Part shown: positions 1,717-62,031 of the stretch, in pieces
Position numbering within the stretch: position 1 is the stretch's first letter
Layout: each line of letters opens with the position of its first letter
Assembly: GCF_964355755.1 (NCBI RefSeq)
Contig: NC_092673.1
Location: forward strand, 21,201,648-21,265,647
Reading direction: 5' to 3'
Length of the DNA stretch: 64,000 nucleotides
Origin: Antedon mediterranea
Lineage: Eukaryota > Animalia > Echinodermata
Position numbers and translations under genes: made by a program
The notes under the pieces: generated by a model
Told to the model about the DNA's origin: nothing
Seen by the model: the letters and a program-made list of their open reading frames with translations, nothing else
Databases searched by the model: none

Positions 1717-3552
1717 ATGGAAGAAGAATATGACAAGGTATATAATTACCTGAGTAATTCTAGTTATCCAGAGGGATGTTCCAAAGAGGATAAACGGAGG
1801 ATCAGAAGAAAATGCCTGAATTTTGTTATACAAGGTATATAAACATTTACTACTAATTCACACCATCCCCAACTACAGGGAGGTTGCGAACAACTGTAAA
1901 AACTATTTCTCTTATAATACAGATTATAAATAATTCAAAAATAAATATCAATTTGTAGGCAAAAATCTAAGAGTAAACAAATACTCTTCAAAGGTAAATG
2001 ACTATACAGTTTTGTTTTGTTATTACAAATTAGTAGTATTATAGAACTTGTGTTATCAACGCTGACTCCATTCTTCATTGTTTTAAATACTTCTTTAATT
2101 CTTGTTTTGTTTTTCCTTTTTGTAATCTACAATAAAATAAATACAATTTGATATCAATATTAATCATTATTCATAATTATATTTTTATTAAATCTAGGAA
2201 AAATCCTTCACCGAAAAATAAAGGATGGAAGAGTTGTCAAATGCATAAAAACAAAAGAAGAAGCAAAAGAAGTCTTGAGACAGGTACACGACATACCAAC
2301 AGGGGGGCATCTAGGCCGAAACAAAACACAAAAGATGGTGTGTGCACGTTTTTACTGGCCAGGCCAAACACTAATGATAAATGAATGGGTAAGCTTGAAA
2401 TCTTATGAAGGTATACATTTTTTTAAGATTACAATTTCTCTTATGGTAACAGTCTTTTATTCAGTCTATTTACAATTGGAAAGTTTTGTTTAAATAAACA
2501 ATTATTTACATAAATAATGTTTAGCTGTCAGACATCATATGAAAGTTTGGAGATGTAAATTGCTAGAATATATAGAACAATGTATCTTAACAATAAAATA
2601 TTTTGTTTAACTTCTAGATAACAAACTGCTTGTCTTGCCAGAAAGGAGACAGCTTAAAGTCAATTTCAAGGGAACTCCAACCAATAGCAGTATGACTTTA
2701 TTGTTTATTTTTATTCTGATCTAAGAATGGTTTTTTCATTACAAAAAAAAGATCATCATCAAAACATTATTAATCAAACCAGGCAACTCACTCATACTGG
2801 TTGACCAAGTATTGATTTTTAATTGAGGGTGTATGTTTCCATTCATGTTTGTGCCAAAAAATGTTTTGCAGTTTAAAAAACGAATTTTGTTTTACAGTAT
2901 AATTGTGAATCTCAAAACTACATTACTTTTAAAGGTTTCAAAAATTCTGCCCTACCAGACCAACAGCATTATTTAAAATATATGTTGTAAATTAAATTTA
3001 ATTGTTTTGTTTCTGCAGGTAACTGGCCCTTTTGAGATGATGGGCATTGATTTAATGGGCCCATATAAAACATCAGACGGAGGAAAAAAGTACATATTTA
3101 CCGCTACTGATTACTACACCAAATGGTGCGAGGCCTTTGTCATTCGGCAAAAAACAAGTGAGGAGGTAGCAGAGTGCATGGTAAAAATTTACCACAGACA
3201 TGGTGCCGTTAAATCAATCATAAGCGACAACGGAAAAGAGTTTGTAAATAAGGTTAGTTCATTATGAGTTAAGTATATATTAAGCGTCTCTACAACAATA
3301 TATAATTCGTTGAATTTCAAATGGGAATAGAAAATAATGTAATTGTTAATGTTTTTCAAAACTGAAGGTTAACGAGAGACTTTGCAAAATATTGGGGGTA
3401 CAACATAGGAAAACAACAGCTTACCATCCACAATCAAATGGCTTGGATGAAAGTACCAATAAAAAAATAAAGAGGTATGTGCATCTTTACAATTATAATA
3501 TTCAATCAGCACGTTGAAACTAAAATAAATACCCGCCCTTGAGTGGTTGCCA

Positions 3553-3589
<37 letters not shown>

Positions 3590-4761
3590 GTTGGTTTTTA
3601 AAAGTATAAAACATTTCCAGTACAATATCGGTTATTTTAAAATTCAATTATACTCTCCCGAACACTTTTCTTTTACACCAAACCAGTAAAATTTGGCCAC
3701 TAGTCCCAACTCCAGTAACATCCAGAGAAAGTGGATAACAAGGACCCCATATTGGCCGCTATATTTGATTTAAGATGACGGATAATGTTCAAAGTTCACA
3801 TCAATATTCCTAGATGTGTAAGGATGTGTGGAAAAAAAAATCTTATAAACCTTCTCAATTGTATACAGATGGCAATAACAAATCCACTATTATCAAACAG
3901 TAAATATATGTATAGTCATTAATTTCCATAACATCATCCAAATGTTGGTTTTATATTTCAGTTGCCTGAGTAAATTAATGGATCAAAAAAAAGATGACTG
4001 GGAAAGGTACCTGGATTCAGTCGTTTTCGCCTTAAATATCAACTGGCACACGACTACAGAGTACAGTCCATTTTTCCTCCTGTACCACAGAAAACCTAAA
4101 ATACCAGCTGAGATAAGTGACGAAGATGAAGAGTGGGTAGGGACCAATGTATTTTTACATCCATTTTCTCTTCATCTGAGCAGAATGCCATTTGGCAGGA
4201 AACATCATCAATGTTTTGCATAAATGCCTTACTGACAACCATATTTCTAGACGAAATAAAATTATGGTTTCAATTATTATCGTTATTAACAATTGTGCAA
4301 TTTTTAATTTATTAGTGTTCTGATATTATGTATAAATTTGTATCTCTAAAAACAGTTATCAAACCTATCGTGCATAACAGAGGCAAATGAAGAAATGGTG
4401 AAAAACAGAGGCAATGCCATCAAAGAAACGACCAAAGCTGTTCTAAAAAATATAAAGAAAAAGCAGAAACAATACAAAACAAAATATGACAAAAAGTTAA
4501 AAAAACCAGCCATTGAAGTAGGTTCAAAAGTTTTAAAATTCAACCAAAGAAAACGAAATATTAAAGGAAATCGTTTGCAACCGAACTTCAGTGGTCCCTA
4601 TATTGTTGCATCCATTGAAGGTAAGACTGTCACACTAAAAGATGAAAATGGAAGTGTTTTGAAATCAAGAACAAGCCTTGATCACATCCGTATATGCAAT
4701 GAGAGTAACACAGAAAAAAGTATCTGTGAAGAGCCAAAAAACAATGATGATGAAGATCTAC
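1717..4761 (+). other. Integrase part of the Ginger-like gene (7 exons)
   Basis: MEEEYDKVYNYLSNSSYPEGCSKEDKRRIRRKC (GIN1/Ginger-type N-terminus); HDIPTGGHLG...FYWPG...CLSCQ (HHCC zinc finger); GIDLMGP, IISDNGKEF, YHPQSNGLDE (D,D,E triad); SPFFLLYHRKP; FSGPYIV (GPY/F motif). Confidence 0.93.
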
Positions 4762-7700
4762 GTAAGTACATAATGTAACATTTGAATTAAACTCATCTTT
4801 TAAATCTATAGTATAGGAATTGTTTGTGGTCATGAAGACAATGTAAATACATGTCTCTATAAATTAACATGCATATGTATAGTATTCAATATGTTTTTAT
4901 TTCAGCAAATCAAGGTTATAATAATTATATTTTTCTAGCAGAAGATGTTACAGAACCACACCATGAGCCAGGTAAGTTGTTACATTTATAAATACATTAT
5001 TCTTAACGTTCTTTTATGGCATTTATTTACATTTAATTATTTCAGCAAATCAAGTTTAAAATAATTATCTTTTTCTAGCAGATGATGTTACAGAACCACA
5101 CCATGAGCCAGGTAAGTTGTTATATTTATAAATACATTATTCTCAACGTTCTTTTATGGCATTTATTTACATTTAATTATTTTAGCAAATCAAGTTTATA
5201 CTAATTATCTTTTTTTAACAGATGATGTTACAGACCCACATCATGAGCCAGGTAAGTTGTTATATTTATAAATACATCATTCTCAACGTTCTTTTATGGC
5301 ATTTATTTACATTTAATTATTTCAGCAAATCAAGTTTATACTAATTATCTTTCTTTTTTAACAGATGATGTTAAAGAACCACGTCATGAGCCAGGTAAGT
5401 TGTTATATTTATAAATACATTATTCTTAATGTTGATTTATGGGATTTTCTTTTATTTAATTAGTTTAGCAAATCAAGTTTATACTAATTATCTTTTGTTA
5501 ACAGATGATGTTACAGAACCACATCATGAGCCAGGTAAGTTGTTATATTTATAAATACATTATTCTCAACGTTCTTTTATGGCATTTATTTACATTTAAT
5601 TATTTTAGCAAATCAAGTTTATACTAATTATCTTTTGTTAACAGATGATGTTACAGAACCACACCATGAGCCAGGTAAGTTGTTATATTTATAAATACAT
5701 TATTCTTAATGTTGTTTTATGGCATTTATTTACATTTAATTATTTCAGCAAATCAAGTTTATAATAATTATCTTTCTTTTTTAACAGATGATGTTACAGA
5801 ACCACATCATGAGCCAGGTAAGTTGTTATATTTATAAATACATTATTCTTAACGTTGATTTATGGGATTTTCTATTATTTAATTATTTCAGCAAATCAAG
5901 TTTATAATAATTATCTTTTGTTAACAGATGATGTTACAGACCCACACCATGAGCCAGGTAAGTTGTTATATTTATAAATACATTATTATTAATGTTGTTT
6001 TCTGGCATTTATTTACATTTAATTATTTCAGCAAATTAAGTTTATACTAATTATCTTTTGTTAACAGATGATGTTACAGAACCACGTCATGAGCCAGGTA
6101 AGTTGTTATATTTATAAATACATTATTCTTAACGTTGATTTATGGATTTTTTTAAATTTAATTATTTAAGCATATCAAGTTTATAATAATTATCTTTTGT
6201 TAACAGATGATGTTACAGAACCACATCATGAGCCAGGTAAGTTGTTATATTTATAAATACATTATTCTTAACGTTCTTTTATGGCATTTATTTACATTTA
6301 ATTATTTCAGCAAATCAAGTTTATAATAATTATCTTTTGTTAACAGATGATGTTACAGAACCACATCATGAGCCAGGTAAGTTGTTATATTTATAAATAC
6401 ATTATTCTTAATGTTGATTTATGGGATTTTCTTTTATTTAATTAGTTTAGCAAATCAAGTTTATACTAATTATCTTTTGTTAACAGATGATGTTACAGAA
6501 CCACATCATGAGCCAGGTAAGTTGTTATATTTATAAATACATTATTCTCAACGTTCTTTTATGGCATTTATTTACATTTAATTATTTTAGCAAATCAAGT
6601 TTATACTAATTATCTTTTGTTAACAGATGATGTTACAGAACCACATCATGAGCCAGGTAAGTTGTTATATTTATAAATACATTATTATTAATGTTGTTTT
6701 ATGGCATTTATTTATATTTAATTATTTCAGCAAATCAAGTTTATACTAATTATCTTTTGTTAACAGATGATGTTACAGACCCACACCATGAGCCAGGTAA
6801 GTTGTTATATTTATAAATACATTATTATTAATGTTGTTTTATGGCATTTATTTACATTTAATTATTTCAGCAAATCAAGTTTATAATAATTATCTTTTCT
6901 TTTTTAACAGATGATGTTACAGAACCACACCATGAGCCAGGTAAGTTGTTATATTTATAAATACATTATTCTTAACGTTGATTTATGGGATTTTCTATTA
7001 TTTAATTATTTCAGCAAATCAAGTTTATAATAATTATCTTTTGTTAACAGATGATGTTACAGAACCACATCATGAGCCAGGTAAGTTGTTATATTTATAA
7101 ATACATTATTATTAATGTTGTTTTCTGGCATTTATTTACATTTAATTATTTCAGCAAATTAAGTTTATACTAATTATCTTTTGTTAACAGATGATGTTAC
7201 AGAACCACGTCATGAGCCAGGTAAGTTGTTATATTTATAAATACATTATTCTTAACGTTGATTTATGGGATTTTTTTAAATTTAATTATTTAAGCATATC
7301 AAGTTTATAATAATTATCTTTTGTTAACAGATGATGTTACAGAACCACATCATGAGCCAGGTAAGTTGTTATATTTATAAATACATTATTCTTAACGTTC
7401 TTTTATGGAATTTATTTACATTTAATTATTTTAGCAAATCAAGTTTATAATAATTATCTTTTGTTAACAGATGATGTTACAGACCCACATCATGAGCCAG
7501 GTAAGTTGTTATATTTATAAATACATTATTATTAATGTTGTTTTATGGCATTTATTTATATTTAATTATTTTAGCAAATCAAGTTTATAATAATTATCTT
7601 TTGTTAACAGATGATGTTACAGACCCACATCATGAGCCAGGTAAGTTGTCGTATTCATAAATACATTATTATTAATGTTGTTTTCTGGCATTTATTTACA

Positions 7701-10700
7701 TTTAATTATTTCAGCAAATTAAGTTTATACTAATTATCTTTTGTTAACAGATGATGTTACAGAACCACGTCATGAGCCAGGTAAGTTGTTATATTTATAA
7801 ATACATTATTCTTAACGTTGATTTATGGGATTTGTTTTTATTTAATTATTTAAGCATATCAAGTTTATAATAATTATCTTTTGTTAACAGATGATGTTAC
7901 AGAACCACACCATGAGCCAGGTAAGTTGTTATATTCATAAATACATTATTATTAATTTTGTTTATTTACATTTAATTATTTTAGCAAATCAAGTTTATAA
8001 TAATTATCTTTATTTCTAGCAGATGATGTTACAGAACCACACCATGAGCCAGGTAAGTTGTTATATTCATAAATGTTTTATTTCATAATTGTAAGAGTGT
8101 CTAGAAAACACAGATCTGATTATTGTCCTATATATATAATATATATATATATATAAATCTGAAGGCAAATTACTGAAAATAATAACAATGCTATATATAT
8201 ACATATATAAAAAAGTCAAATCGACAAAAGAATCGTTTTATTATTAATAAGAGGGTAGTGCGGTCAATTTGCATAAAATGCTGGTACAGTATATTTCAGA
8301 TATTCATGATATAAGAACACTATTCAATGACTGATTGTGCATAATGCATAAACATTTTATTTATCTTTAAATCTCCCCGCAATAGCCTAAATATATAGGC
8401 TAACATAACTTTGTAGTTTGCATTACATTATGACAAATATTTTGATATTTTGATATTTTTAAAAAGGTAAACAGCAAAGACGACACACTGGATTTGCCAA
8501 GATTGAAAACGTCGGCTATAATTCGCCAATTACATTTTCTTCGTCGGAGTCTGAGGTTTCTCTAAATAATCTCGAAAAAGGAACAAAAAACATAAACAAT
8601 TTATTTAGTTCGGATTTGGACAACCAAGGTTTGTTATTAATTTTACAAAACCTACTTTATCCTTGTGTGACACACATACATTTTAATGTCGAAAAACTAA
8701 ATTTATTTTCATTTTCAAAATGTTTACTTATCGATCTGAAATTCTATTTTTATAGTACGAAAAAACAAAACAACCACTATAGTATCCATATCATCTGATT
8801 TTGATGACTTAATACCACAGGTTGATGCTACAGACTTTCCCTCCGATTCTTTCCATAAATGTGATATGATTTCCATATCTCCACTTTCCACAACCAACAA
8901 CGAAAAACAAACAGACACATAGAGGGCGACAATACAAAAAAAAAATTATTCAAATTTGTTTTCGGTATTTAGCATTTTTTACCTCCGCCAAGGAGGTATA
9001 TGTAATCGATCGCGTGTGTTTGTTAGTTTGTCTGTCTAGACAGTTTGTTTGTTTGTTAACAGGATTACTCAAAAAGTAATTACAAGGTCTTTACCAAAAT
9101 GAATGTACAGATAGATATGTGGTCAACGACCATTCCATTAAATTTTGGGACCATTTCGGACCACGGTCCCAATTCTGGACCACTTTTTAGTATACTTTTC
9201 AGACCTGCTAGTGTTAAAAGATAGGACAAAATTTTTCAAACGCCGGCGAGCAGTCTTAAAGTAACAAGTAAACTGTAATTGAATTTTCTCGAAAACTACT
9301 TGTCCAAAAAACTTCATTTTTGTACAAGAGGCAAGAGTTCTAATTTCTGATTTGTAATTTTAAAACATAATTTTATTTAATGTGCACATTTTTTGATGCG
9401 AGTAGTTTAAAAAAGCCTATTTCTTTTCAAATTCACTCGTTTGATTTTCGCGTTGCTGTTCTTAGTCAACTGAAGCTATTGTTAATTGTTGAAAGGCTTG
9501 TTACATAACCATTACACCAAACTCGTATACATATGCTTGTATTTAAATTAGCCTAAATCAGAACACACAAATATATACAGTATATATTTTTTTTTTACCG
9601 GAGAAATCTTATGTAGGAGAATTTTACAGTAGGCGGAGGTATGCACTCTCAGAGTGGCTTTCTAGTTTATTTTGTTTTTGGTTGTTTTCGGTTTGTGTTT
9701 GGTTGCTTTCGGTAATTAGACTGACCATTTTTGTTGTTTTCGGTTGTTTTTTTTATTGTTTTCGGTAATTAGACTGATCCTACATTATTATTAATGTTGT
9801 TTTCTGGCATTTATTTACATTTAATTATTTTAGCAAATTAATTTTATAATAATTATCTTTGTTTATTAACAGATGATGGTAAGTTGTTATATTCATAAAT
9901 ACAGTTGTTTTATGGCATTTATTTACATTTAGTTTATAATAATTATCTTTTGTTAACAGATGATGTTACAGAACCACATCATGAGCCAGGTAAGTTGTTA
10001 TATTTATAAAATACATTATTTTAAACCTTTTTTTATGTATGTTATGTATTGAATTTGGCATTAAATTAAAATCCCTTTTGAGATTTGTTGTTAATCACCA
10101 CATTGTTGAAACCAAAGAATTGTGTTATTAACCACATTGGTTTCTCTCATCTGTCTTGGATAAAAGTTTTACATTTTAGAATTTTATATGCACCTATTTA
10201 TATTATTTATTCAGTAGATGAAGGGGATGATGAAATGGAAAGTGATTGTAAGTAATCTGAAATGTATTCAACTAAAGGGCGGTCCTATCCTTTATATAAA
10301 AAAATTTAAAAAAGTGTATGACCGATTTTGTTAGCCCTGGTTTTTAGTTATGCAAAAAAAATAACTTCTTGATAAAATGTTAAAATATGTATAGTTTATG
10401 AATTGTAAGATAATATTGCATGGGATTTCGCTCTGTGCCCATTAGAAATTCTGCAGTGAATGTTTTCTATTTTGTCATTCTAATTTGGTTTTCTTTACTT
10501 TGTGTTTATATTATAATAACAGTATGTACTACATACATTATAACAATTACTTTTCATTTTTTAGTTGATGATGATGAACTTTTAAATCTATGTAAGTACA
10601 TAATTGTAAACGATAAAAGAATTGATTTAGTTTGCACAGCGTAGAAAAAGATACAACAAACAATACAGAAAGTATAAAGCATACAAGTTAGATAAATAAG

Positions 10701-13700
10701 TTCAAAATTTGTTCAAAACATGGATGGGAGCAGTGGACCATCCGACTCAAGCCATTTCAAATCAATGGGAGCACTTAATGCCGACCTACAGGGTATATAG
10801 GCTGTAAATATAAAGGTATATCAAATTGCCCCAGCTTAAGTTAAATCCCCATCTTTCCCCTTGCTTGAGCTATTGGGTAAGTGTTGTTTCTGTAGCAAAA
10901 TGTGAATGTAAAAATTAGTAAAATAGACAAATTTTTATTCTAGCTGAACTAGATATATCCTGGACAAAGGATGAAAGCTGTGAGTATACTAATTGTTTAT
11001 TATTAATACGTAATAAGAAATGTATTAATATGTAATAAGAATAATTTGTTTGGTAACCGATGAATAAATAACAATACGTAAAAAAAGGCTGCAAAAATAG
11101 TAATGAAATAAGACAACATACAGAATGTAACTACTGTATATATCATGAATAAAGTGTTTTGTAATACAGTAAACATTAAACAACTTACCGTAACAAATAT
11201 TAAAAACAAAGTTGTCTAGCATTCATATTATCATCTTATTATTATCATATAAATTATTCTGCAGCCAAACTAGATGTGTCCTGGATAAAACAAGAGACTT
11301 GTAAGTACATAATACAGGATTGGAGTACTGTTATGGAGGATTCTCACAAATTGCCTTGCTATTTACCTATATCTTATTAAATAATTATATTTATTCACTT
11401 ACCAAGATGGGTTAGAATTAATTTATATGATTCAATATTGGTAATCAATGAAATATAAAATATAATTACAGGAATTATTAAAAATTAAAATTAACTTTCA
11501 TTTATTATCAATAGCTATTCAGAATTGTTATTATACAAAGGATTTGGCTGTTAAAGGTAACTACTGTTTTAAAAACCAAAGTTAACAAACTGCATGAATG
11601 TTTAAAGTGATACATACAGTAATGAAGCTAACAATAACAAGCTATGAAATACACAAAACATTATAAGTGAATGGTACTGCAATATTTACTAATTACTGTG
11701 CTATAAAACAAGTTAAATTGCTAATTTAAAATCTATCAATGGCATAGAAATGTCTATATTCAATTATTAGTATCAAAATGAAGCTAACCTTCAGATATAA
11801 TTTAAATATTGTAAAGTAAATTTTTCTTATATTAAATTTAGCTCTTGATTCAGCTTGGAATTTAAGTCAATTGGACCAATGCCTAGTCAGTAAGGTATCC
11901 GGTATTCAGGTTTTTAAAAACGACCTATCCACCATTCGAGATTGGCTATCAGACAAGGTAAACATGTACTACTTAATTATTGGTTATCCGCTCTCTCTAA
12001 TTGTCAATTTTTTTTTTTTTTGCTATTATTTTTTCTTTCTGCCATCTTTTTTCTAAAACTTGCAATCATAACATATCGTAAATTTCTTAACATATTGACA
12101 TTTATGTTCTGCCTACATTTTCATAACAATTGTACACTTGTCCAAAGTGCAGGTTCAAATGTAATATGTATTTGTCCATGTACAGACATGTATTTTTCAC
12201 TATAATTTTTGTACAAAAACAAACCACTTAAAAATACTGTAACTTCACACAGTAATTAGTCAACAACAAAAATACACCAGAAATTAAAACCACCTTTTAA
12301 ATCTTTCAGGTAATTGACGTATTCCTAGAAATACTAGTTCTCCGAAACACGGTAAGTGGTGGTTCTGTGTTGTTTTAAAGGTTGAATTGAAATTTACTGA
12401 AGATGTGTTTATACTGTATTCCCAAGAAGCATAGATTATAATATTCATTAACAACCATACATATATTATTACACATTTATAGAATGAATGTTTAGTGTTT
12501 CTAAGTTTGATAGTTCTTTATAAAGTATTTAAAATTATTATGTTTCATTCATTGTTCCAGTAGTCTTAGTGTACTTAATTGTGAATAGCATATTATCTTT
12601 TACAGGAAAAAAAAATACTAAGGATAGAATCTGTCATTTTGACAGATATTCTTAATGGTTCATGCAAACCAAGTCACTTAAGGAAGGTATGTATCATGAC
12701 ACAAATAACACATTTATTGATAATAAAAAAAACTGCTTTATTGATAGTTTATAATTTATAAAGCACAAACAAATTTATAGGTCTTCCAACAATAAACAAT
12801 TTGTTCTTAAACTAACTATTCAATGAAAAATAGTTAATTAATAAACAGGGATAGATGCTGTTTGGGTTTCTTTATAAGCTATAGTTTGTGTTATCAACTT
12901 TCTATTGTGTAGTAATGCTAAAAAAAACACTACTACTGCACAGTACTAAAATCTCAAGTAACATTTTAAAAATAGAACTATGCTACAAAATTTAAAACTG
13001 TTTTTAGGTCATATTATGACTAACTTTTTTTTTATATATGGTAGGTTGATTTCTCCAATTTTGATACCATAATTGGTGGGTTACATGAACCAGGCCATTG
13101 GACTTTTATAGTAAGAAGGTTTTATTCAAACTTATTCATGATTGTTAATTACAAAAGTCTTTTGTTAAAGAATTTTATTTTCAGTCCTGTGAATGTTTTG
13201 ATAACAATTATTATACTATTTCAGATTGGATACCCAGAGCAGAATCTGCTATTATATCTAAATCCCCTAGGAGAGTTGCAGGAAAAATGCACTAGCATTA
13301 AAGCTAATTGGAAGTAAGTATTGATGTTACAATGTGGCTGGCAGGCTGTAGTATCATATAGAAATGATTGTAAGACAAAACAGTTTATGATAGGTAAATC
13401 ATTCTGTGAATTATTGAAAAAAACATCTAAATATGTACAACTGTATACTAATAATTATTATAACTTTGCCTAAAAATGTTTTGCTAAATTAACTAAATTT
13501 TATGATTTTCAATATTGATAGTATTTAAAAAATGGCACCTCCTCTTTTATTTTTTTTATTTCCATAAGTTGACATTACTTAGTTAACCTGTAAGATAATT
13601 TGTCTGTGTTCGATGTCATTTTTTGTTTCAGTCTGTTTATGCAAATTAATGAGTAGTTAATATGGCAATCAGCATGTTGGCAATAGTTCACTGTTGGTGC

Positions 13701-15224
13701 GGATATCAATAAATAAACAAATTATCAGACTTTCCAATCTATAAAATGTTGTATGTATTGTTTCGTTCACAGTAAATTCATGAAAATGAGATTTAACACC
13801 AATGCACCAGGAGGAAGTGCACAAAGGTGGGATGTGTCCACATCTGTGCATGCCAAACAGAGGGACAGTTCTTCTTGCGGCATTTTTGTACTCAAGGTAA
13901 CTAATATCTAAAAGTAATATTAAATAATTATAATAATAAGGAAGATGTAATTGTCATAATGGTAATAAAATATTGGAAAATAAAATAGTTATTAAACCTG
14001 TTTTTTCCTAAGTTTGCAGAGGCTTTTATAGAAAGTAGAAGTTTAAAATTTGCAACAGACTCTACATCTATATTACAGTACAGGCATGAAATTGGAGTAC
14101 AGATATTGATGGCATCTGGTAAATTATAGTTTTATATTCTTGATATTTCAAATTTTACTAAAAACAAAAAAGTAACAAAAATGTCAGACAAAATGCCTAC
14201 CTAATGTTTTTTGTATTTACAAAAAAATCCTAATTTTTGAATTTATCTTTCAGAAAATTTAACACCATATTGCCGGTTTTGTGGTAATGAGGAGGTACCA
14301 AGTGGTCTGTATGAAGAAGAGACAAGACCCAAACCCAAATCAACACAGTGGGTGCGTAATTATCACTTTTTGGAATTTAATGATAATAATGCTACTAATT
14401 TCAAATGTTTTCTTTTTCTGGTTTTGATATTAAAATATTTATAGCTATAATTGTGAAGAGTTATCACTTAAGTCATCTATCAATACCACATACTAATATG
14501 AGAGATAGAAGGGAAGGGGGAGCAAGAGGGTGGTAATTTTTAAATAAATACCCCTATTTCATCTGCCTGTCTTTTTACCCCTTGAAATGTACTACCTTTT
14601 AGTCTTTAAACCGTTATGTATTCATTTTAATGTTGTTATCAACTATTCAGGGTACAATGCACAAATCTGTTTGAGATATAAAATCAAATTTCATTTTTAT
14701 TTGTTAAAAATTAGGTTGCATGTGACACATGTCACAAATGGTACCACCAGGATTGTTTAGATGTGCCAAAAACAAACTTTTCATCAGAAAAAAAATTCAT
14801 TTGCAACAGCTGCAAAAATGAACAGCAGCAGCAACAACAACATAAAAGAAAGCAGCAACACCCACAACAAAAACAAAAAGAGCCGCAGCAGCATCAACCA
14901 CAACAACCACAGCAGCAACCATATGAACTTGTAAATATAACTAACAGAATTAAAAAATGCAAGGGATGCAGAAATTATTTCAAAAAACCAGTAACTCCAC
15001 CATATGACTTAGTGATACGGCACAAAGAAAAACTACATTTTTACAATCCAAAAACTCAAACACAACAACTGGGAAATTTACAAAATGTTTATTATCACCC
15101 CAAAATTAAATGTGTGCAAATTTGCCACCCACAATTCCAGGCCAAAGACCTAGTCCTGTCAGAAGGAACAAAATTAAAGTCTGCCCACAGACATCTCCTA
15201 AAACGCAGGGGATGGGTGCTATAA
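1717..15224 (+). CDS. Ginger1-type transposase/integrase fused to a microexon-encoded acidic His-rich repeat linker, Ulp1 (peptidase C48) protease, PHD finger, Q-rich tract and C-terminal Cys/His finger (~1129 aa, ~45 exons)
   Basis: Manual splicing gives one frame. Integrase exons: 1717-1834, 2198-2388, 2618-2689, 3019-3252, 3368-3474, 3962-4136, 4356-4761. Microexons: 23 x 30 nt (4942-8052), 9873-9878, 9960-9989, 10218-10247, 10565-10591, 10944-10979, 11265-11300. Later exons: 11842-11957, 12310-12351, 12606-12686, 13045-13110, 13225-13313, 13773-13896, 14013-14118, 14254-14351, 14715-15224. All introns are GT-AG with consistent phases and no internal stop. Introns plus integrase+Ulp1+PHD and no RT/gag match the known Ginger1 architecture. 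Confidence 0.85.
4895..8073 (+). repeat. Tandem array of 23 x ~140-bp units, each a ~110-nt intron plus a 30-nt coding microexon (DDVTEPHHEP)
   Basis: Microexons start at 4942, 5082, 5222, 5365, 5505, 5645, 5788, 5928, 6068, 6207, 6347, 6487, 6627, 6767, 6911, 7051, 7191, 7331, 7471, 7611, 7751, 7891, 8023. Typical unit reads ...ttttgttaacag|ATGATGTTACAGAACCACAYCATGAGCCAG|gtaagttg. Two more units follow an insertion (9873-9878, 6 nt; 9960-9989). Confidence 0.95.
8978..9667 (+). mobile_element. Helentron-associated (HINE/DINE-1-like) non-autonomous element, family A copy 1
   Basis: 5' ACCTCCGCC with adjacent palindrome (ccaaggaggt); GTTT/GTCT microsatellite; 3' subterminal inverse GGCGGAGGT followed by hairpin cactct-c-agagtg and ctagtt; T-rich insertion site. 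Two more copies occur in the window. Confidence 0.7.
11842..14118 (+). other. Ulp1/SENP-like cysteine protease domain of the Ginger-like gene (7 exons)
   Basis: Spliced translation: DLSTIRDWLSDKVIDVFL...LHEPGHWTFI...YLNPLG...HAKQRDSSSCGIFVLKFAE...YRHEIG. This has the C48 family WL.D.VI motif, catalytic His (HW), Asn in place of Asp, oxyanion Gln and catalytic Cys. Confidence 0.85.
14254..15224 (+). other. PHD finger, Q/P-rich tract and C-terminal CxxC...HxxC finger of the Ginger-like gene
   Basis: YCRFCG...QWVACDTCHKWYHQDCLD...FICNSC (C4HC3 PHD); QQQQQQHKRKQQHPQQ...; KKCKGC...NVYYHPKIKCV. Confidence 0.88.
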
Positions 15225-15831
15225 CTATATTTTGAAATAATTTCTGCATCCCTTGCATGTTTTTAAATGTATTTTTATTTGTATATGTATTTGTATATGT
15301 ATTTTTAAAGGGACAGCTGGCCTTTGGGTCATAGAGATATTTTTTCTTTAGCTGTCCCTTACCATTTTTGGTAAATAAATAAATGAAAATACCGGTAGAG
15401 TATCACTAAAAAAAAATTTTAAATAAAAAATGTATACATTTATATACTTATATACATAGTATATTCATATATACTTGGAGTCGATTTTATATTACTGTAC
15501 TAGTTTATTCCACAAATTAGCTACCTGAAAGGGAAAACTTTAAAAAAAATTTATTATTAGGTGTTTGATCTATAAAATTATAATTTAATATCATGTTCTT
15601 TGAATAAATTTCTTGAATAATTTGGCATTGTGGTATAGAGCAATCTTAGTATAATTTTGGTGTTGAGATTAAATCTAGTTTAGATATATGTTACTAAAGC
15701 TTCAGAACTTTTACTGATATATGTTATGTTGGGAAAGAAATATTTACTTTTTTATGTAACCCTCGAATAAACGCCCCGGGCCATTAGTGTTGATATTTAA
15801 ATCTGAATAATTTTTGTTTCTGTGAGATCCT

Positions 15832-17634: not shown

Positions 17635-19616
17635 TGTCAGATGAAATCGGTCGCGTCTGAAATCGGTCGCGTTTGAAATCGGTCGCGATTAAATCAACTT
17701 CCGGTATTTTGTATGGCGCGCCGCTAGAGCTATACGTTTAATGATATCGGTCGCGTTTGAAATCGGTCGCGCTATTTTGCATGGGACGCACTAGATACAT
17801 TTTTAATGAAAACGCTAATTATTATGTTTTTAGTTTATTTTGAATATAGAATTTCTAATACTATTAACATTTCTTTTACCTTGATCGTTATTATTTTTTT
17901 AGTACAGTAAATATAAATATTTATTTCGTTATTTATAAATAATTTGTGTTTTCATTTTATCCTACAGGTGTCAATGAATAATTGTAATGTGTTCGTTTAG
18001 AAAATCGTTTTAAAAAGTTTTTAAAAAGATTAGCATGCCACTGTTTAAAGTTTTAAAAATGTTGAAATGATTTAATATTAAACAAGTAGACGCGCGCGCC
18101 TATTGCGTATCACAGTTAATTACGAAACTAGTTCTATACCTGCAAGTGGATACCAGCCACGAGGTTTATGCAATAAATATGATGTATGACGATGATTTTT
18201 ACGTTCGATATCCACCACTCTTACGTGAGCATGGTTTTAGGATAATACTAATAAAATAATATGCCGTTATAAATCAATCTACCGGGCCTATACAGTAGGA
18301 CTATGCTGTACAGGACAGGACCACAATGCAAAACAAGTTTATTTCTACTTGATTGTGTTTTATCCTGTATAAATATGTTGTTAAATAAATAAATACAATA
18401 GGCCTAGATGTGAGAATAATAATGGATGGATAATAAAGGTGGGCAAGATTCTCAAAGAGGTAATCTTGCACTGATATTTAAACATTTAGATTTACGAACG
18501 GTGTACGGATATGAGACACTTGGTAGGCCTACTTAATTATTTACATTAAGTGATCATTATAAATGAAGAAATAAAAGATATTCAAATTAAAAACTATAGT
18601 ATCGCCGACGTATATACGTATTATATACATCGTTTCAAAATGGAACTAGGTTTCACAAAAACACGTGCAGGCCTATTGATGTTTCAACCGTATGGTTATT
18701 AGTAATAGGCCTAGTAGTATACGTCATCTTTACATGGCCATGGACAACGATCGTACGTGTTTTGTCCATGATTTGACACACTAGTGCGTGTTTTTTTTAA
18801 AGGGAATCCCCGTCAGCAAAATAACGTGCAGTTAACGTCTGCACGATCATAGAAGGTGCATCCACGATATGGCATATTTCGGGGTTTATTTCAGTAACTC
18901 GCCTTTAAACGATCCGCATATAATAATCATTTTTTACTAGAAAATATTTTAGGCCTAAACATTAGTAATAAAAATATACACGTGATTTGTCTCAACAATA
19001 ATCATTATAGGCCTATACTTAATATTATCCTACATAACGTACGGACATAAATAAAATAGAAATTAAAATTAGGTGATCCAATAATAGTAAGTTTTTAACG
19101 ACATGGATATTATCTGCCACAAAAATGGATATGCTGGCTTACAATTATTGTTTTTAAATAAATTGTTCTCTTTTACGTAATGGTTTGCATAATAAAAGAC
19201 ACAGACGTATATTCTCTATATATATTAATTACAGTACATAATAAAATAGAGGTAAATTATTATATGCCTAATAAAATATTTAAACGTGTTTAGAAATGGC
19301 CATTTTGAAAAGCACGTAGTCCTTCTTCTCTGAGACCTGTGTAATAAAATAAAATGATTGATAATAAACATTTATTAACCAAAATAAAAAATATCCACAT
19401 AAATAATCTAGTTCCTAAAAAATATCAATTAAATCTAGACTATATAAACGAAGAAAATGATTATCCCGCTAGCATGCATCTCGCTCCATAAAAAATAGCG
19501 CGACCGATTTCAAACGCGACCGATTTCAAACGTATAGCTCTAGCGGCGCGCCATACAAAATACCGGAAGTTGATTTTATCGCGACCGATTTCAAACGCGA
19601 CCGATTTCATCGTAAA
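17635..19616. mobile_element. ~2-kb non-autonomous DNA transposon with ~150-bp TIRs built from GAAATCGGTCGCG subrepeats (possibly Ginger-type)
   Basis: 17635-17785 is the near-perfect reverse complement of ~19485-19616 and includes caacttccggtattttgtatggcgcgccgctagagctatacgttt. The left end reads ACGG|TGT; the right terminus is degenerate (cgtaaa|cccc). No internal ORF. Confidence 0.8.
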
Positions 19617-20035: not shown

Positions 20036-20329
20036 AGTAGAGATCGAGGCTAGAGCGTTGTAGAGATCGAGAGGAGGCTAGAGCGTTGCTGCTGTGCTGA
20101 AGAGAACACCTCGACACACATAAAGACTAGAGAGGGGGGGTTGAAAATTATGGGCGGATTTATGTTAATAAATAACCGATGACGTCATTTGATTGACACA
20201 AGGGGGGTTGAGAATTATGGGGAGGTTGGATTTCTTAGAACAGTGGCACCAACAATGTCGTGAAAAAATAGCGAGGGAAAAAATGTTCTTAAAAAAAACA
20301 ATTCATTTCTTTCCAAATGCCAATCATTT

Positions 20330-23300
20330 ATGATCCTCGATACCTTAAGAAGGATGAATAACGGGCCCATTTTAATTAGTTCAGATTCTGATGATTCTGA
20401 AGATGATGATGATGATCTGGACTTGGTGGTCATTAACTCTTGGACATCGCCTACCAAAGCCAGGAAGGAGTCTTGTGATATAGGCCTAGGCCTAGGATTA
20501 CCAGACAGGCATAAGGCTACACCTAGGCCTAGGCTATGTCCAAAGTTGTTTAAAAATAGGCCTAGGCCTACAGCTATCTTAGGACCTATAATTGTCATAA
20601 GTGACGACGACAGTGACAGGACAACTGGAGATGAGTGTGTTGTATCCTCCGACTCAGAGTCGACAAAAGTAAGCAAATAATATAATAATTAATATAAATT
20701 AATACTACTAGGCTACTACTAGGCTAGGGCCAGCCTAGTAGTAGCTAGCTAGCTAGGCCTAGGCCGTAGTTAATACTGTAATAATAAATTATAACTCTAT
20801 AGGCCTGGCCCTAGCAGTATAGGCTAGGCGCCTAGCCTAGGCCTATTTTATTATAATAATTTTTACAGAATTGCAAGAAATTAGTTTTGTACTGTATTTT
20901 ATTTATATTTTGTATTGATGACACTCTATTCGACAAGCCAGAAGTTTATTGTAAAGTAATGATATAGATTTATAATTGAAAATTAATCAACCTTATTAGT
21001 ATCACAATTCAATTGTGTTTACGAATTTTCCCCAGAAAGGTCAATTGAAGAGATTTTCCAGATGTTTTTATGCCATTGGTCCATAATTAAACTCCAAAAG
21101 AAAACAGTTGATTTGACCTCTAACCATTCACATAAAACTATTAGATATTGACAGTTTTAAGCAGAGATTCGACAGGGCCAATTCATCATTGTAACCCCCC
21201 AGATAAGATCAATCACTCCCATCCAAACTACTGTACCTGGACAGAATTAGGACCAATCATTAAACTCACAGATAATGTAATGACAATGCTAATGAACTGA
21301 AGCCGATATATTCCCAAGTGTGAGAATAGCAAAGGCACACCTTACAGACACTTCTTCGAAGACACACCTCGCAGACACTTCTCGGAGCGCACACCTTACA
21401 GACACTTCTCGGAGAACACACCTCACAGACACTTCTTCGGAGCACACATCTTACCGACACTTCCTCAGAAGCACATCTACAGCCACATCTCACTTACAGC
21501 ATCAATCTTATACTTTGTTCCTGTTTCTTTATATTTGTATCGTATTGAATATTATAACGAATTATTGAATAAACAACTGTAATATTCAATCAACCAAGCG
21601 AGTAGAGTCTTTACAGTAAAACCTCCACACATTATATTATTATATTACATTATTGTTAGGCCTAGGCGAGGCCTAATGCACTTGTCAATTGTATGACCCA
21701 CTATACGATCCCCGGGAGAGATGCGTCATTATTATGTATTAAATAGCATTCATTACCAGCTTTATAACCATACTGTATATGGTAGGATTGTAAGCCAACC
21801 TACAGTATTGGTACATGCTGAACAGGGTGTACCAGTACCAATCAATGTACAAGAAATGATTTTCAAAAATGTTTGTGTAATACACTTACAGCCAGCGATG
21901 AAATCAAGGGAGGGACAACCGATAATTCAGTATTTTGCGAGCAACAATGGGATGGGGGCCAGGGGACCGCCTACGACCCCCGGCCGGGGTGCCCTGTGGA
22001 AGCTTTGGCGTTTCAGGGCAACCTAGATCATTTTAATCAGTTTACTGTACGTGCGCACAAATATGACAATGTTATTGGTAACACTAATTATACACTTCAA
22101 CAAAAGGTTTGCTCGAGAACGTTAGTTGCCGTAGACTTTGACCAGGTTCACCCCGCATACTACAGTATGTTTTCCTCAGTTCTTGCATTGTTGTGTGATA
22201 TCAAACTGCCTGTAGCGATGTTTGCAGCACTGCTGCGTCGGCTGTTCCCACGTCGTTTGTTTCAATTTTGTTGAAAACAAGTTGATAAAATTGCGATTTG
22301 ACGATTTGTTGTGAAGGGGACGATGTGTTTAAATTGTTTGTTTTTTTCCCTAAAAAATTACGGAGGGGGTGAGGTCAGTGTTCAACAACTGCTTATCAAA
22401 ATGATTAAATCTAAAATCTGTTTATTACAACTCTATGTAGAAACACTTTTATACTTATAGTTCTTTATATAGTAGTAGGCCCAGCCATATATGAAGTTCA
22501 CTACAGTATTTGTAGGTCAAGTCAACCAGGGTGATGTTTTATGTTTCATTAAACCATCCTTTTTCCCTTTCACACAATCTTTTCAGACAAGTGTGCGTTG
22601 TTTCTTTGTCTACTACCAGCAGATCTACTACCAGCAGAATAATAAAGCGACTTATAGGGGGATTGCATATGAGGTCAAAAGGTTATAAAAGTTGACTTCG
22701 CTACGCTCCAATGCTCATAGTTGCCATTTCTGGCATTATTATGCTTTTTGGCATTATTTAGAGGCCCACGGCATCTGGCATAATGCCGCGGCATTATTTA
22801 GCCGTTTTTAGCATAATCTGGCATAATTTTGTGTTTTTTGAACAACCAAAAAAATAATATACCACAGAACAAAAATAAAATATTTTGTTAATCTTGCAAT
22901 TTAATACATATCATCACCTTACACAATATCATATCGTACAAAACAGATCTGTTCGGGTTTTCGGTACAATAGTTCTTCCATCCTTTTGTTTCGGACTTAA
23001 ATAGACTCTTCGGATAGGAAGGCTGCTCGAAAACTACCGTGTGTGCGATATAGGCAGCACAGCAAATCCGAAGAGGCTAGCTATTGGCCAATTATGTTGC
23101 TCTATTTCAGAGACCATGCAGGTTATTGGATCCCCAGAATATAGAGACAATTGAACGAAAACATTATGAAAGGGGTTTTGTTGTTTCAGTTCATAATTAT
23201 AAGTGGCCGCACCCCTACCCCAACCCTTGAAATGGCAATTTCCAGTAACTAATTAGAAGCTCTAATTTTAAAAAGAATTTCTTCTAGGAGAATTTGTTTT

Positions 23301-26300: not shown

Positions 26301-29300
26301 CGACCTGCCTATTTCGGGTAAAAATGAACACATTCTCTAATGGGACTGTACACATAATGTAAAATAAATTTTTGTTTTGTTTTAAAATTAAAACTCTCAT
26401 ACTGTACAAAGGCAATAATATTGTTTTTCTCTCAGCATTTTATTTATGTATTATATTATGTTATTGTTATGTATTATGTAAATTATATTATAAATAAAAT
26501 TAAAAACGTCATGAATATTTGGTACCAGCAGGCATAGATGATAATTATTATTATTAATAGTTTTGAGATTATGAATGCTGTGCATGTTCTAAATTTAGAT
26601 TTAAGCTTTAAGGCCCATTCACACTAGGACGATAACAATCGACGATAATAGACAATAATTTACATTTTTCATACATAAAATAAAAGAAATATAAAACCTT
26701 TTCATTCTAGAACTATAGAATAACCATCTATGCTTCCTTTGATGAAAATTATATTTCCATACGTCCAATCAAATGACGTCATGATTACTTTAAAATGTAG
26801 ATGTGGTTCAGGTTTATAGTACAGTAGTTCATTGACCTACTACAGTATTTACAAATCAAAATATTCTCTTTTTATTTTAACATTAACAATTCGATTCACT
26901 TGAGCACACTGTTGTTCAAGGTGTAAAAGTCATCTAATCTGTCCATTGGGATGGGAGATTACTTACATTACTTATTACTCTGGTATGCTAGTACTGTAGA
27001 TGGAATGCAATTGTGAGGTTGAATAGTGTACAGTAGATAGTTTGGTATTATCAGGTTAACTGTACATATATTTAAGGATTGTAGATAAATTAGTCATTCT
27101 ACAGTATACAGTTGAGGAATAGTACTGTACTGTATTCTTGAAGTACAGTATAGTCTGGTATGATAAATCTTCATACATATGATTTGATAAAACATCGTTT
27201 TCCAGAGACATGACTACAAAGTGTAGTATAGTTAAGCAAAAGCGTTAGGTTGATTTCATTCTTTGATAATATTTTAAATAAATAGCAATTATTCTAATTT
27301 TATAATCCTACTATGATAAAGCTTCGTACGATTTGATAACACACCATTTTTCATCCTTTGATAATATTTTGTAAAGAAAATTGAGAGAATTGTTATGGTG
27401 TGGTGACCCACAGCGGTAAAAATAACCTTTCTTGCATCATTAACCAAGTATTTTGATACTACTGTATCTTGTGTGATTTTTTTCTAAAGCACAGTTAGTG
27501 AAAGCAATTTAAAATATGTTAAAATCAATTCATTGTACTTTTATGCTATTTATTAGGTACAGTACAGTATCTCTATTTCTTCATTATTTCATTTTTATTA
27601 TACTGTATTTAATTTTGTTTAATTCTTCAAGATGAGGACACTGCGCACCGCAGCCACAATATTGACACAGATTTAAGGAACTCAAAAATTAATGAGTGGT
27701 AGAGAACAAGTCAGACTTAATTATGTAATACTGACGGTCCAGTTTACACATCTAGCTAGTGTGCTTCCCGGGGTCACTCTTAAATATTTTCATGTCAAAA
27801 TGTCACAATTTATCGCACAATTTTAGCAGGGATTTTAACTATACTGGATGCTAAGCCCATCGCTAAATTGATCCTACCTTTGAATCAATGAATACTAGCC
27901 GCCTATGTTATCACAAACCCTGTAATGAACGGTCGCCCTTTTCCTGTCGTCTTGGTAGTTCAAGTCCATAGTATTTTTCAGTAAAACAGGTAGCACCCTC
28001 ATGTCTTGAAGTGGCTGCTGCACCTCCCTGTTTGGTTTGTATATACAAGTGACCACCGTCACCCCACCCTCCGGGGTGTGCTTTTAAATAACACAGTTAA
28101 AGAGTAGGGGGTTACTGTACCAGTGTTCCACCACTCCAGTGTTTAGGTTCACTTCTGCTCGTCATTTATCGCTATGTTGGGTTAACAGCCCTACTACTGT
28201 ACCTGTAGTTAAATATTCATTTTCATCAAAGTAAACACAGTATTTAATTTTTTTGTTTTTATTTACAGTATATTTTTGTTTTCAGGATAATTTAATTTGC
28301 AGTACATATATTTCTATATAGTCTAATATAGTCTTTTAAAGCTTTTTTTTTCTTGTATTGCAGGAAAACCAATTTGTTGATGACCTACTTGATATAACAT
28401 TTGATGATATAAATGATGAAACAAAACCTCAAAATATGGAAACATCGCCTATCACACCCTTCATGGAAAGGCACACCCTGTCGCCACAAAACTTCCTTAA
28501 AACAAACAATAAATTTAGTCCTATAAAAAGATCAGAAACATTAAAAGGTTCAATAAACAATAACTCTAGGACAATCAAGTGCATTAAACCATTTCGGAAC
28601 TTAAATATAAAACAAGTTTGGCATCACTTAAGCAAAAAAACAAAAGATCAATTGTCAAAGATCTCAAATGAGGTGATAGTATTAAGTCATAATCAACATA
28701 GCCAGCTATTGTCTTCAGCTTTGCCAACTCATCTGAATAACGATTTCTATCGAGATGTCCAACGACCACATATGAATGATGTTCAAAACCAGACTGTAGA
28801 AATGAGTAACATTCACAACAATATAATTGAGGGTCACCAAGAGGAAGAGGTACATTCTGAAGCAATCACATATATTCACGATTTTACAACAACTGATATC
28901 TATCCTGAAAAACAGTGTTTAAAATATTTATTAGACACCCTTGTTGCGGTTGGAAGTAGAGATCTTACTTGTCAGACCTATAAAACTCTGAAACATATCC
29001 AGAACCACCATAAGCTAACTAGGAAAGACTTTTCAGAAGATTGGAACCAAATTATGGACATTTTAAAACCTCTAGAAACTGAATGTAATATTTTATTCTA
29101 TAGGAACAGACTTCTTTACTTAGATTTATTAACATCTGTCCTAGAAGAAGATCTTAACAAACATAAACTTAGGAATACAACGGCACAATCGTTTTTATGT
29201 AAAATGTTAAGCCCAGACCATGAAATGGCAAATCTAGCCAGTTTAAGTCTGTGTTTACTCAGTGTTTTGCAAAGAACGTTTGATAATTCTTCAGATATGT

Positions 29301-31390
29301 TTTTGGAAGAAGGTATTCAACGTTCTTTGTTGTTGCTACAGAAGATACTAACACTTAGTGTAGAGGTCTCCAAATCACGTCCTGAGGGTGCCATGAAAAT
29401 AGCTGAACACTTGCTCTATCCATTTCGTAATCTATCAAAAGTGGAACATAGGAGTCAACTACTTGAGGTACGCTTTTATTAACTTTTTTTTTAAATTTCG
29501 AATTAAAAGACGTTTACTATATTTCAATATAAAATTTAATGACAAAAAGAGAGATCGACGTTTCGGTATCATCATACAGTAGAACCATTTTCAAGATCAA
29601 CTGAATACAAAAAAATAATAATTATGTCCTGTCACCAACTTTGTTGCCTAGTGCACATAATTTACCTCCGCCAAGGAGTATATGTAATCGGTAGCGTGTG
29701 TTTGTTTGTTTGTTTGTTTGTTTGTTAGCAGGATTACTCAAAAAGTAATTACAAGATCTTTACCAAAATGAATAGACAGATAGATATGTGGTCAAGGACC
29801 ATTCCATTAAATTTTGGGACCATTTGGGACCACAGTCGCAATTCTGGACCACTTTTTAGTATACTTTTTTAGACCTGCTAGTGTTAAAAGATAGGACAGA
29901 ATTTTTCAAAAGCCACCGAGCAGTCTTAAAGTAACAAGTAAACTGAAATTGCATTTTCTCGAGAACTACTTGTCCAAAAAACTTCATTTTTTAACAAGAG
30001 GCAAGAGTTATAATTTGTGATTTGTAATTTTAAAACATAATTTGATTTAATGTGCACGTTTTTTTATGCGAGTAGTTTAAAAAAACTATTTGGCGGAGGT
30101 ATATTAGATTTAATGTACAAGTTTTTTTATACGAGTAGTTTAAAAACCATATTTCTTTTCAAATTCACTCGTTTGATTTTCAAATTTCTGTTCTATTGTT
30201 AGTCGGCTAAAGCTATTGTTAGTTAATTAGAGAGATCGACGTTTCGGTACCATCATACAGTAGAACCATTTTCAAGATCAAGTGAATACAAAACAATAAT
30301 AATTATGTCCTGTCACCAACTTTGGTGCTTAGTGCACATAATTATTATTTTTTTTTTTTTTTTTTTATATTATTGTAGCAAAAGGAATATGATTTAAACA
30401 ATGTAAAAGTGTTCTGATTAAAATGGTACTGTACCACATCCTGATTAGTGACATTCCATGGAAGACCAACCTCAGGAATATGAACCTAGTTAAGTAGACA
30501 TTGAGGAGAATCACCTGTTAAGAATTAGTCTCACCATGTTACACAACATAGAAACTATGTAATACTGTAATGTTTTATTTATTTGTGTTATTGTTAGTTA
30601 ATACAACAAATTATTTATACCTTTCAGACAATGCAGAGTAATCTTCTAAGAATAAAACTAATAGAGTTATGGCTAGAAAACTGCTGTGTGGTTAGAGACG
30701 TCTGTATACCTACATCTGGTGACCCAATATCCATCAATAAGATCCTGAATCGCCATTTCAGGTGTACGCCCTCATCGACTGTTGAAGATGCTAGCGTTGC
30801 CTGTGAAGAGTTAGCTATGATGCTGTATTTGCTCCTCAAGTCATACCTTGCATACAATGCAGGTTAGTTGCTTTATACAGTACGGTACTTAAAAAAAAAT
30901 TTAAATCCAACATAATCTATCTACTGTAAATTTCAAAATAGTATCAAAACAATAATATGTGTGTAGAGTGTATTATTACAAAAATAAAGATTTCAATAAT
31001 CCAAAATTTATATTTCAAGTTCATTTTATTTATTTAAAAAAAAAAACGTTTTAGGCGCCTGCCCATAATGTCCAGATTTTAGCTAGGTACAGAATATTAC
31101 TGTAATTTTCTTCTGGTATTGCACACAGTTGGTGTAACATCTTTCTATAGAAACAACATATATAATACTTTTTGGAATTTATTACAGAGAAAATCCATCC
31201 AAATGCAACAGACAATGCATCTTGTTATTGTGGTTTAAAGTTATCAAGAGAAGAATCAACATTGTTTCTAACAATGGGAGATGTTGTGACCAAGCTACGT
31301 AATCATCTCAGTTCATATGGGGAACTCACCACTAAGACGCTTGCCTACCTCAGTTATATAGAATCTCTGCAAGATCTTGTGGATATTTGA
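20330..31390 (+). CDS. SIMC1: SUMO-interacting motif-containing protein 1-like (N-terminal SIMs, C-terminal Nse5-like helical domain)
   Basis: Exons 20330(or 20354)-20668, 28364-29467, 30628-30862, 31188-31390 with consistent phases. SIM-like motifs PILISSDSDD, DLVVI, PIIVISDDDSD, CVVSSDSE. C-terminal segments LEEDL, LQKILTLSVEV, KIAE, TMQSNLLRIKLIE and EEL...LLKSY resemble vertebrate SIMC1 as recalled. Confidence 0.75.
21190..21649 (+). mobile_element. Possible solo LTR with internal ~27-bp tandem repeat
   Basis: TGTAA...TTACA termini, AATAAA near 21568, flanks tcat/ttat (4-bp TSD with 1 mismatch); about 5-6 copies of cacacct.acagacacttct.gg at 21335-21480. Confidence 0.4.
22716..24192. mobile_element. 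Non-autonomous hAT/P-type DNA transposon
   Basis: Perfect 8-bp TSD CCAATGCT (22708-22715 and 24193-24200); imperfect TIR CATAGTTGCCA / TGGCAACGCTG; subterminal GGCATWAT repeats at both ends; internal ~200-bp tandem duplication at ~23400-23830. Confidence 0.82.
29661..30230 (+). mobile_element. HINE-like family A copy 2 (rearranged 3' end)
   Basis: tttacctccgccaagga...(gttt)n...; body highly similar to 8978-9667; GGCGGAGGT at ~30092, then a further internal piece. Confidence 0.7.
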
Positions 31391-61905: not shown

Positions 61906-62031
61906 TAAGGAGGACAAGCGTAGTAACTAAGCTAGAGTAACGTTTTCTTTCGGATCGTATATTACTTTCTCAAAAAATAATTGGAAATACCACATTACCG
62001 GCCCTTTCTTTTCTCATTTAGATACATGATT

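Follow-up and report, generated by a model that had tools for sequence, protein, structure and literature searches.

A tandem array of predicted 30-nt microexons in the integrase-protease linker of a predicted Ginger1-type transposase gene of Antedon mediterranea

A 64,000-nucleotide stretch of the Antedon mediterranea genome (NCBI RefSeq assembly GCF_964355755.1, contig NC_092673.1, positions 21,201,648 to 21,265,647; the window in what follows) contains what appears to be an intact transposase gene of the Ginger1 type, in which the linker between the integrase and a predicted protease holds 25 young tandem units of one intron plus one very short exon. With modest confidence, we favour the reading that most of these exons are likely spliced in, giving a predicted floppy spacer, acidic in character, of which neither length nor sequence is likely to matter much. 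The array consists of 24 units made of a ~110-nt intron and a 30-nt exon in phase 1-1, and of one further unit with a 6-nt exon. When the window was scanned for AG, exactly 30 nt and GTAAGT, 27 sites matched; 24 are array units between 4942 and 9989, and the remaining three are the end of an integrase exon, the microexon at 10218 and one unrelated site at 56410. Tandem Repeats Finder assigns a period of 140, 22.7 copies and a score of 5194 to the repeat at 4897-8074, and the 22 introns between the 23 contiguous units measure 102-114 nt. The unit peptide DDVTEPHHEP is present in 14 of the 24 full units. All units are symmetric and in frame with the exon ending at 4761 and the exon starting at 11842, so that gain, loss or skipping of any of them leaves the protease in frame.

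A preliminary description of this stretch had placed 24 intron-plus-exon units inside an integrase-protease gene, with both splice sites and the 30-nt length kept in every full copy and with phase 1-1 in frame upstream and downstream. The scan and a stop-free model of 1129 residues agree with it on these points. Its estimate of up to ~240 residues of acidic, His/Pro-rich linker corresponds to 242 residues on full inclusion, and the in-frame 6-nt unit (9873-9878) is, as it stated, the sole exonic indel. The extent given there (4895..9989) is not one contiguous block, an insertion of 1.7 kb (about 8074-9780) splitting the intron behind unit 23; beyond it, the unit sequence picks up in register at 9781. 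Within the insertion, 8978-9669 belongs to a dispersed repeat, further copies of which lie at 29661-30224, 34189-34291, 62031-62537 and 63198-63253 (82-90% alike). Length change does fall in the intronic part, although the periods span 132-144 and not ~132-143. The 22 complete units comprise 21 distinct sequences, which are 86-100% alike with a mean identity of 93%. Units 7-9 differ from units 15-17 at 1, 2 and 1 positions, and units 4-5 from units 11-12 at 2 and 0. These matches show that the array grew in tandem by multiplication of blocks of units.

The gene model (1717-15225, 13.5 kb) has 45 exons, 44 introns, every one of which is GT-AG, and 1129 codons with no internal stop. Microexons account for 29 of the 45 exons and 285 of the 1129 residues. 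As read from the sequence, the gene encodes, in an intact frame, an integrase, a predicted Ulp1-like (SUMO-protease) domain and a PHD finger. Pfam searches with single exons recovered PF17921 (Integrase_H2C2, E=1.2e-12), PF00665 (rve, E=2.6e-12) and PF00628 (PHD, E=2e-7); 7 of 12 exons gave no match and one further exon only a spurious chitinase line. The zinc finger residues of the H2C2 type are H70, H77, C107 and C110, the DDE core is formed by D138, D197 and E233 with a spacing of 35 residues (D-D35-E), and GPY occurs at residues 379-381 within the region that aligns to relatives. Upstream of the zinc finger, a YPYY-like start has Tyr17-Pro18 and Phe36, with His at the fourth position. The N-terminus of the model is acidic and has no hydrophobic stretch. 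PF02902 matched none of the single exons of this gene; it is matched by the relatives P0009, P0001 and P0121. Residues 721-993 match P0009 (BLASTP E=7e-31), and the relative P0110 matches SENP1/2 structures (SENP2 E=9e-9). The protease catalytic residues His817, Gln880 and Cys886 are present. Asn834 (exon 13225-13313) replaces the usual Asp in the Ulp1-like triad, and Asn is found in the relative P0016 too.

Ginger1 elements lack reverse transcriptase and encode an integrase of the Gypsy kind in which H2C2, DDE and GPY/F are present (the last missing from Ginger2), and they have spliceosomal introns; C-terminally they have an Ulp1 or OTU protease and, optionally, PHD, with Ulp1 and PHD together in Ginger1-9_HM, according to the available text of the original description (Bao, Kapitonov, Jurka 2010, PMC2836005). 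The present gene has the H2C2 finger, the DDE core, GPY/F, the C-terminal protease (Ulp1 by way of its relatives) and PHD. In a quick IQ-TREE search with 93 integrase cores, drawn from the gene model and from 92 of 108 relatives and including no named Ginger1 or GIN reference, the gene falls in a set of 27 rows lacking reverse transcriptase (Shimodaira-Hasegawa-like approximate likelihood-ratio test, SH-aLRT, 99). This set takes in 7 of 7 Ulp1-labelled rows and 0 of 42 rows bearing reverse transcriptase. The best integrase identity to this gene is 40% among the 270 proteins compared. The last integrase exon, used as a protein query, had no match among 829 candidates, a HMMER search with P0005 against 1.84 billion representatives gave no near-identical copy among the best 150, and viral contigs yielded 0 relatives among 50 pattern matches.

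Described Ginger1 elements are 2.6-7 kb long with 0-4 introns and 500-800 residues, and end in terminal inverted repeats of 40-270 bp that start with TGTNR, flanked by a 4-bp target duplication of CCGG or CCGT/ACGG (PMC2836005, available text). The present gene differs from them in its 13.5 kb, 44 introns, 29 microexons and extra C-terminal tail, and in that no terminal repeat pair was detected round it, whether by exact, motif-based or brute-force searching, in the window, which starts 1.7 kb upstream, so that the left end could lie outside. A lone ACGG followed by TGTTG is located at 405-413, no paired CCGG or CCGT/ACGG target-duplication site was found round the gene within the window, and the gene is present there as one copy. 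Among related metagenome loci (321 confirmed, 80 kept, 17 checked for inverted repeats), Ginger1-type ends were found in 5 of the 17: L021, L033, L044 (CCGG both sides), L036 (one mismatch) and L025 (CCAG). All five carry introns, and L025, with its terminal inverted repeats, has three intron positions in common with this gene; introns therefore do not decide between a mobile and a domesticated gene. The host genes GIN1 and GIN2, with 6-8 introns, and Imagin, which has lost the DDE triad, are derived from Ginger1, as far as the accessible portions of the reports go (PMC2836005; PMC12863088). Like them, the present gene resembles an integrase, is split into many exons and shows no terminal repeats; unlike Imagin, it has an intact DDE triad. 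On these features we classify it as a putative Ginger1-type transposase gene and do not file it as a complete mobile element.

All 24 array donors match CAG/GTAAGT at 9 of 9 positions, against 4-7 of 9 for the 20 other donors of the gene, and the array introns are as short as four of its ordinary introns, which measure 114-135 nt. Of the 22 introns that separate contiguous units, 10 have a branch-like YTRAY 18-21 nt 5' of the acceptor. RNA folding that would hide splice sites was not detected in two units, which fold no better than shuffles (z=-0.18). None of the 12 splice-consensus columns varies, versus 33 of the 128 other columns (one-sided p=0.03, or 0.06 by events), values that are marginal and come from units that are not independent. 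Taken together, these signals suggest that most array units are probably spliced into mRNA. Two other routes were rejected: retention of whole units as coding sequence runs into a stop within 6 codons, and recursive AG/GT ratcheting at the AG before each donor fails on inspection, the pyrimidine tract and branch-like motif preceding the upstream AG. An alternative acceptor 36 nt upstream leaves the frame open in only 16 of 22 units and was not used as evidence. Tandem acceptors 3 nt apart were seen at units 1, 2 and 23 and at the 10218 exon (4939, 5079, 8020, 10215); tandem and upstream acceptors thus add in-frame splice options.

The alternative that survives best, although we regard it as unlikely, is that the array is a splice-site-bearing minisatellite that is mostly skipped, leaving an mRNA with one or few units. 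The exons are not needed for the frame, and exon constraint is not seen in the array. Exons of 30 nt fall below the usual size for exon definition. The precedent is provided by the amphioxus mirages, which span one exon-intron boundary and seem to be left out of mRNA; the available parts of the reports give units of 150-160 bp, 81-100% identity, unstable length and reverse-transcription polymerase chain reaction results that suggest normal splicing (PMC3087553, PMC3902484), and describe splice-site-spanning tandem repeats in the transposase-derived PGBD5 of lancelets (PMC3902484). The present array is like the mirages in its minisatellite-like units of similar length and identity, its splice signals and its concerted evolution. 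It departs from them in that each unit holds an acceptor, a whole symmetric 30-nt exon and the gene's best donor, whereas the amphioxus type copies a single boundary. The array introns, moreover, are as short as the ordinary short introns of the gene, and the linker also holds older microexons that seem to have been maintained.

These older microexons, overlooked by the preliminary description, are four further symmetric exons 3' of the array (30, 27, 36 and 36 nt; Table 1), which bring the microexons to 29 overall. The 36-nt pair is identical at 25 of 36 positions, a level reached by 0 of 200000 shuffles, with third positions making up 6 of its 11 differences. Its flanks match at 16 of 36 and 11 of 36, that is at chance level, the introns having diverged. 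Some of the older duplicated microexons thus look maintained as exons. A 13-nt donor sequence has three occurrences in the 64 kb, each at a linker exon (ends 4761, 10591 and 11300); together with the 36-nt pair, this implies that duplication has struck within the linker more than once. No significant alignment was obtained between the array unit and the older microexons, which points to separate duplications. An L-D-x-x-W pattern recurs in both 36-nt exons and where the first protease exon begins (11842-11876), and the pair may derive from the 5' end of that exon.

The peptide of the young array shows no sign of selection. Variable sites number 5 of 30 in exons and 28 of 110 in introns (p=0.47; by events p=0.29), with a diversity of 0.044 and 0.075, respectively. 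The stronger constraint on exonic than on intronic positions that had been proposed is thus not borne out, an outcome named beforehand as counting against the proposal, although an array this young gives the test little power and its result is absence of evidence. The earlier statement that exonic changes are mostly third-position overstates constraint: 3 of 5 are at third positions and just 1 is silent (His CAC/CAT), GAA/GAC exchanging Glu and Asp. With 4 amino-acid-changing differences, and 18 silent and 70 changing single-base changes possible, the silent share equals expectation. A His-to-Arg change is found in 4 of the 24 units, and the lone exonic indel, being in frame, is a one-in-three event.

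An adaptive role, in which regulated skipping and copy number set the length of the linker, or His/Asp clusters bind Zn or Cu, and so control the enzyme, is quite unlikely. In its favour, the predicted 242-residue product of the array holds 44 His and 97 Asp/Glu. A parallel exists in avian fast troponin T, in which seven pentapeptide P exons, developmentally spliced, encode the Tx repeat that arose by their duplication and binds metal (Cu>Ni>Zn), as the accessible text of two reports has it (PMC7581897, PMC11016001). In both cases the short tandem exons are frame-neutral, and each contributes one repeat rich in His and acidic residues to a segment that is disordered; troponin T is a muscle protein, whereas here 24 predicted ten-residue exons, separated by near-identical introns, lie in a transposase. 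Against such a role stand the His-to-Arg changes and the lack of excess silent change, and near-identical units would leave a regulator little to distinguish. The linker repeats of relatives, rich in Ser/Pro/Thr/Ala and with 1-6% His against 14% here, are unrelated to the unit of this gene, which weakens the idea that metal binding, suggested earlier, is a function under selection. Neither regulated tuning nor metal binding by the linker is supported. Slightly less probable still is the fullest version of this idea, that a working integrase-SUMO-protease transposase skips microexons to obtain up to 30 linker lengths, its His/acid-rich and possibly metal-loaded tether setting the reach of the protease and PHD beyond the transposition complex; in that case the Ginger1 linker would be a control element, tunable by splicing, that has so far gone unnoticed, and a place where new introns are still being born.

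The reading of the linker as a tolerant spacer comes from comparison with relatives. Among the 270 proteins compared, 23 align with this gene over its integrase as well as its C-terminal part, and 16 of these have a tandem repeat in the linker; since 10 of the 16 belong to one tilapia family, they represent 7 independent families. Those without a linker repeat are Mya (3 records), P0006, P0153, P0157 and P0162, of which P0153 and P0162 look like broken models. The repeat units, in fish and others, are unrelated to one another and 7-21 residues long (including 8, 9, 12, 14 and 15); an acidic 21-residue unit was read by eye in P0175. In tilapia, 11 records that are 96-100% alike have 4-7 linker units, these being 11 of 15 listed from a cluster of 29, some of which may be isoforms or alleles. 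The P0026 cluster (P0109-P0122), a tilapia integrase-Ulp1-PHD family of 96-100% identity, has several locus ids and unrelated names, and probably represents a Ginger1 family that was active not long ago and whose linker varies. In the AlphaFold model of P0009, linker residues 417-562 have a predicted local distance difference test score (pLDDT) below 50 between folded domains. Linker length is 145-256 residues in full-length relatives, and 311 here with all exons or 69 without the array. Because relatives carry unrelated repeats at the same place, the integrase-Ulp1 linker looks like a family-wide tolerant spacer and a hot spot of repeat expansion.

Several results weigh against the view that the array is spliced in as a spacer. 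Besides the marginal splice-site values, the frame needs no microexon, being 844 residues long without them, and amphioxus minisatellites of similar size at splice sites are reported, in the parts of the reports cited above, not to alter mRNA. P0157 has both domains and a linker of only about 34 residues, and a long spacer is therefore not required. A microexon array was found in 0 of 9 related loci, a narrow sample from one assembly and a sister subfamily, by a rule that recovers 27 of the 29 microexons of this gene. In L004, the sole repeat-bearing relative linker read at the DNA level, the repeat (L004:11166-11352) is intra-exonic, with 8.8 copies of 21 bp in one open frame.

The reading of an included, tolerated spacer can be set out as follows. 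A disordered tether between integrase and protease would tolerate almost any length or repeat, as its relatives suggest. A chance duplication spanning one whole small exon and its intron would have founded a minisatellite, the units of which may have multiplied, minisatellite-like, by unequal crossing-over or slippage. Each ~110-nt intron, with its perfect donor, would be removed across the intron, most exons being included and some skipped. The array would persist by drift, with at most splice sites and frame policed, and the same duplication process would have left the older, diverged microexons downstream.

A recently silenced transposon relic, the array of which grew in unexpressed DNA, is very unlikely. 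The failure to find a terminal repeat pair, the insertions in introns and the lack of a database protein with this sequence among the search results would fit such a relic. Against it, the frame of 1129 codons is free of stops and frameshifts, all 44 introns across the 13.5 kb are canonical and the catalytic residues are intact. Inflation of the copy number by assembly error is almost certainly not the explanation: repeats are hard to assemble and one unit pair is identical, but the units diverge block by block and are otherwise distinct, which argues against assembly stutter.

Runs of symmetric exons of at most 36 nt that can be skipped in frame, as in 29 of 45 exons here, are also a feature of the Schistosoma micro-exon genes, which encode secreted or membrane proteins mainly from microexons and have high dN/dS (ratio of nonsynonymous to synonymous substitution) in the available text (PMC8293314); here, by contrast, the microexons are near-identical and supply 285 of the 1129 residues of a predicted nuclear enzyme. 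The preliminary description knew of no transposase with such an array. None was found in the literature searched, most subscription papers being outside its coverage, but the splice-site-spanning repeats of lancelet PGBD5 qualify the claim; what is new is the position of the array, in the linker of a transposase. Linker repeats are not mentioned in the available text on Ginger1 (PMC2836005), and family-wide repeat expansion of the integrase-Ulp1 linker was not found in print in the literature searched. If the exons are included, the gene would have 44 introns against the 0-4 of described Ginger1, 25 of them having arisen recently by tandem duplication of intron plus exon. Successive stages of intron gain through internal duplication, seldom seen as a time series, would then lie side by side, with older diverged rounds adjoining. 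The array is also a natural test of whether the spliceosome includes or skips 30-nt exons that are almost alike and separated by introns of 110 nt, or produces a ladder from them. Linker repeats would grow intra-exonically in at least one related element and through microexons in this gene. Arrays of this kind would be taken for satellites by annotation pipelines and masked.

Table 1. Features of the gene and its linker (positions in the window)
Feature	Position	Strand	Details
Integrase part	1717..4761	+	7 exons: 1717-1834, 2198-2388, 2618-2689, 3019-3252, 3368-3474, 3962-4136, 4356-4761
Main array	4897..8073	+	23 exons, each of 30 nt, from 4942-4971 to 8023-8052
Insertion	8074..9780		1.7 kb, splits intron behind unit 23
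Truncated unit	9873..9878	+	6-nt exon left by an in-frame shortening, acceptor and donor kept
24th full exon	9960..9989	+	30 nt, found by scan
Older acidic microexon	10218..10247	+	30 nt, phase 1-1
Older acidic microexon	10565..10591	+	27 nt, phase 1-1
Microexon, duplicate of 11265-11300	10944..10979	+	36 nt
Microexon, duplicate of 10944-10979	11265..11300	+	36 nt
Predicted Ulp1/SENP-like protease and PHD start	11842..14351	+	8 exons: 11842-11957, 12310-12351, 12606-12686, 13045-13110, 13225-13313, 13773-13896, 14013-14118, 14254-14351
Last exon	14715..15225	+	PHD finger (PF00628), Gln-rich stretch, Cys/His-rich tail, stop codon

The Cys/His-rich tail (14918-15225, residues 1029-1129) has no counterpart in the 270 proteins compared and no ESM Atlas match above 0.89, and may be a further zinc finger. 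A 34-bp inverted repeat (97%) has one arm coding in the last exon (14952-14985) and the other just 3' of the stop codon (15230-15263); the arms could pair in mRNA.

Upstream of the gene, at 926-1136, a 37-bp perfect inverted repeat with arms 137 nt apart resembles a small non-autonomous element. Behind the gene, at a distance of 2.4 kb, a 2-kb element (17635-19616) has inverted ends of ~130 bp made of 16-bp units. Its left end, ACGG followed by TGTCA, is Ginger1-like, its right end is degenerate, and both ends resemble those of L025; it is possibly a non-autonomous Ginger1-type element. The open frames 20264-20680 and 28340-29482 have no Pfam match, and the former carries several hydrophobic-plus-acidic motifs that may resemble SUMO-interacting motifs, a curious neighbour for a gene with a SUMO-protease-like domain. 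The window also contains the domains of ordinary animal genes, namely a tetraspanin (39996-40403, minus strand), an ATP:guanido phosphotransferase (51521-51934, minus strand) and a PCO/ADO dioxygenase (58697-59470, plus strand).

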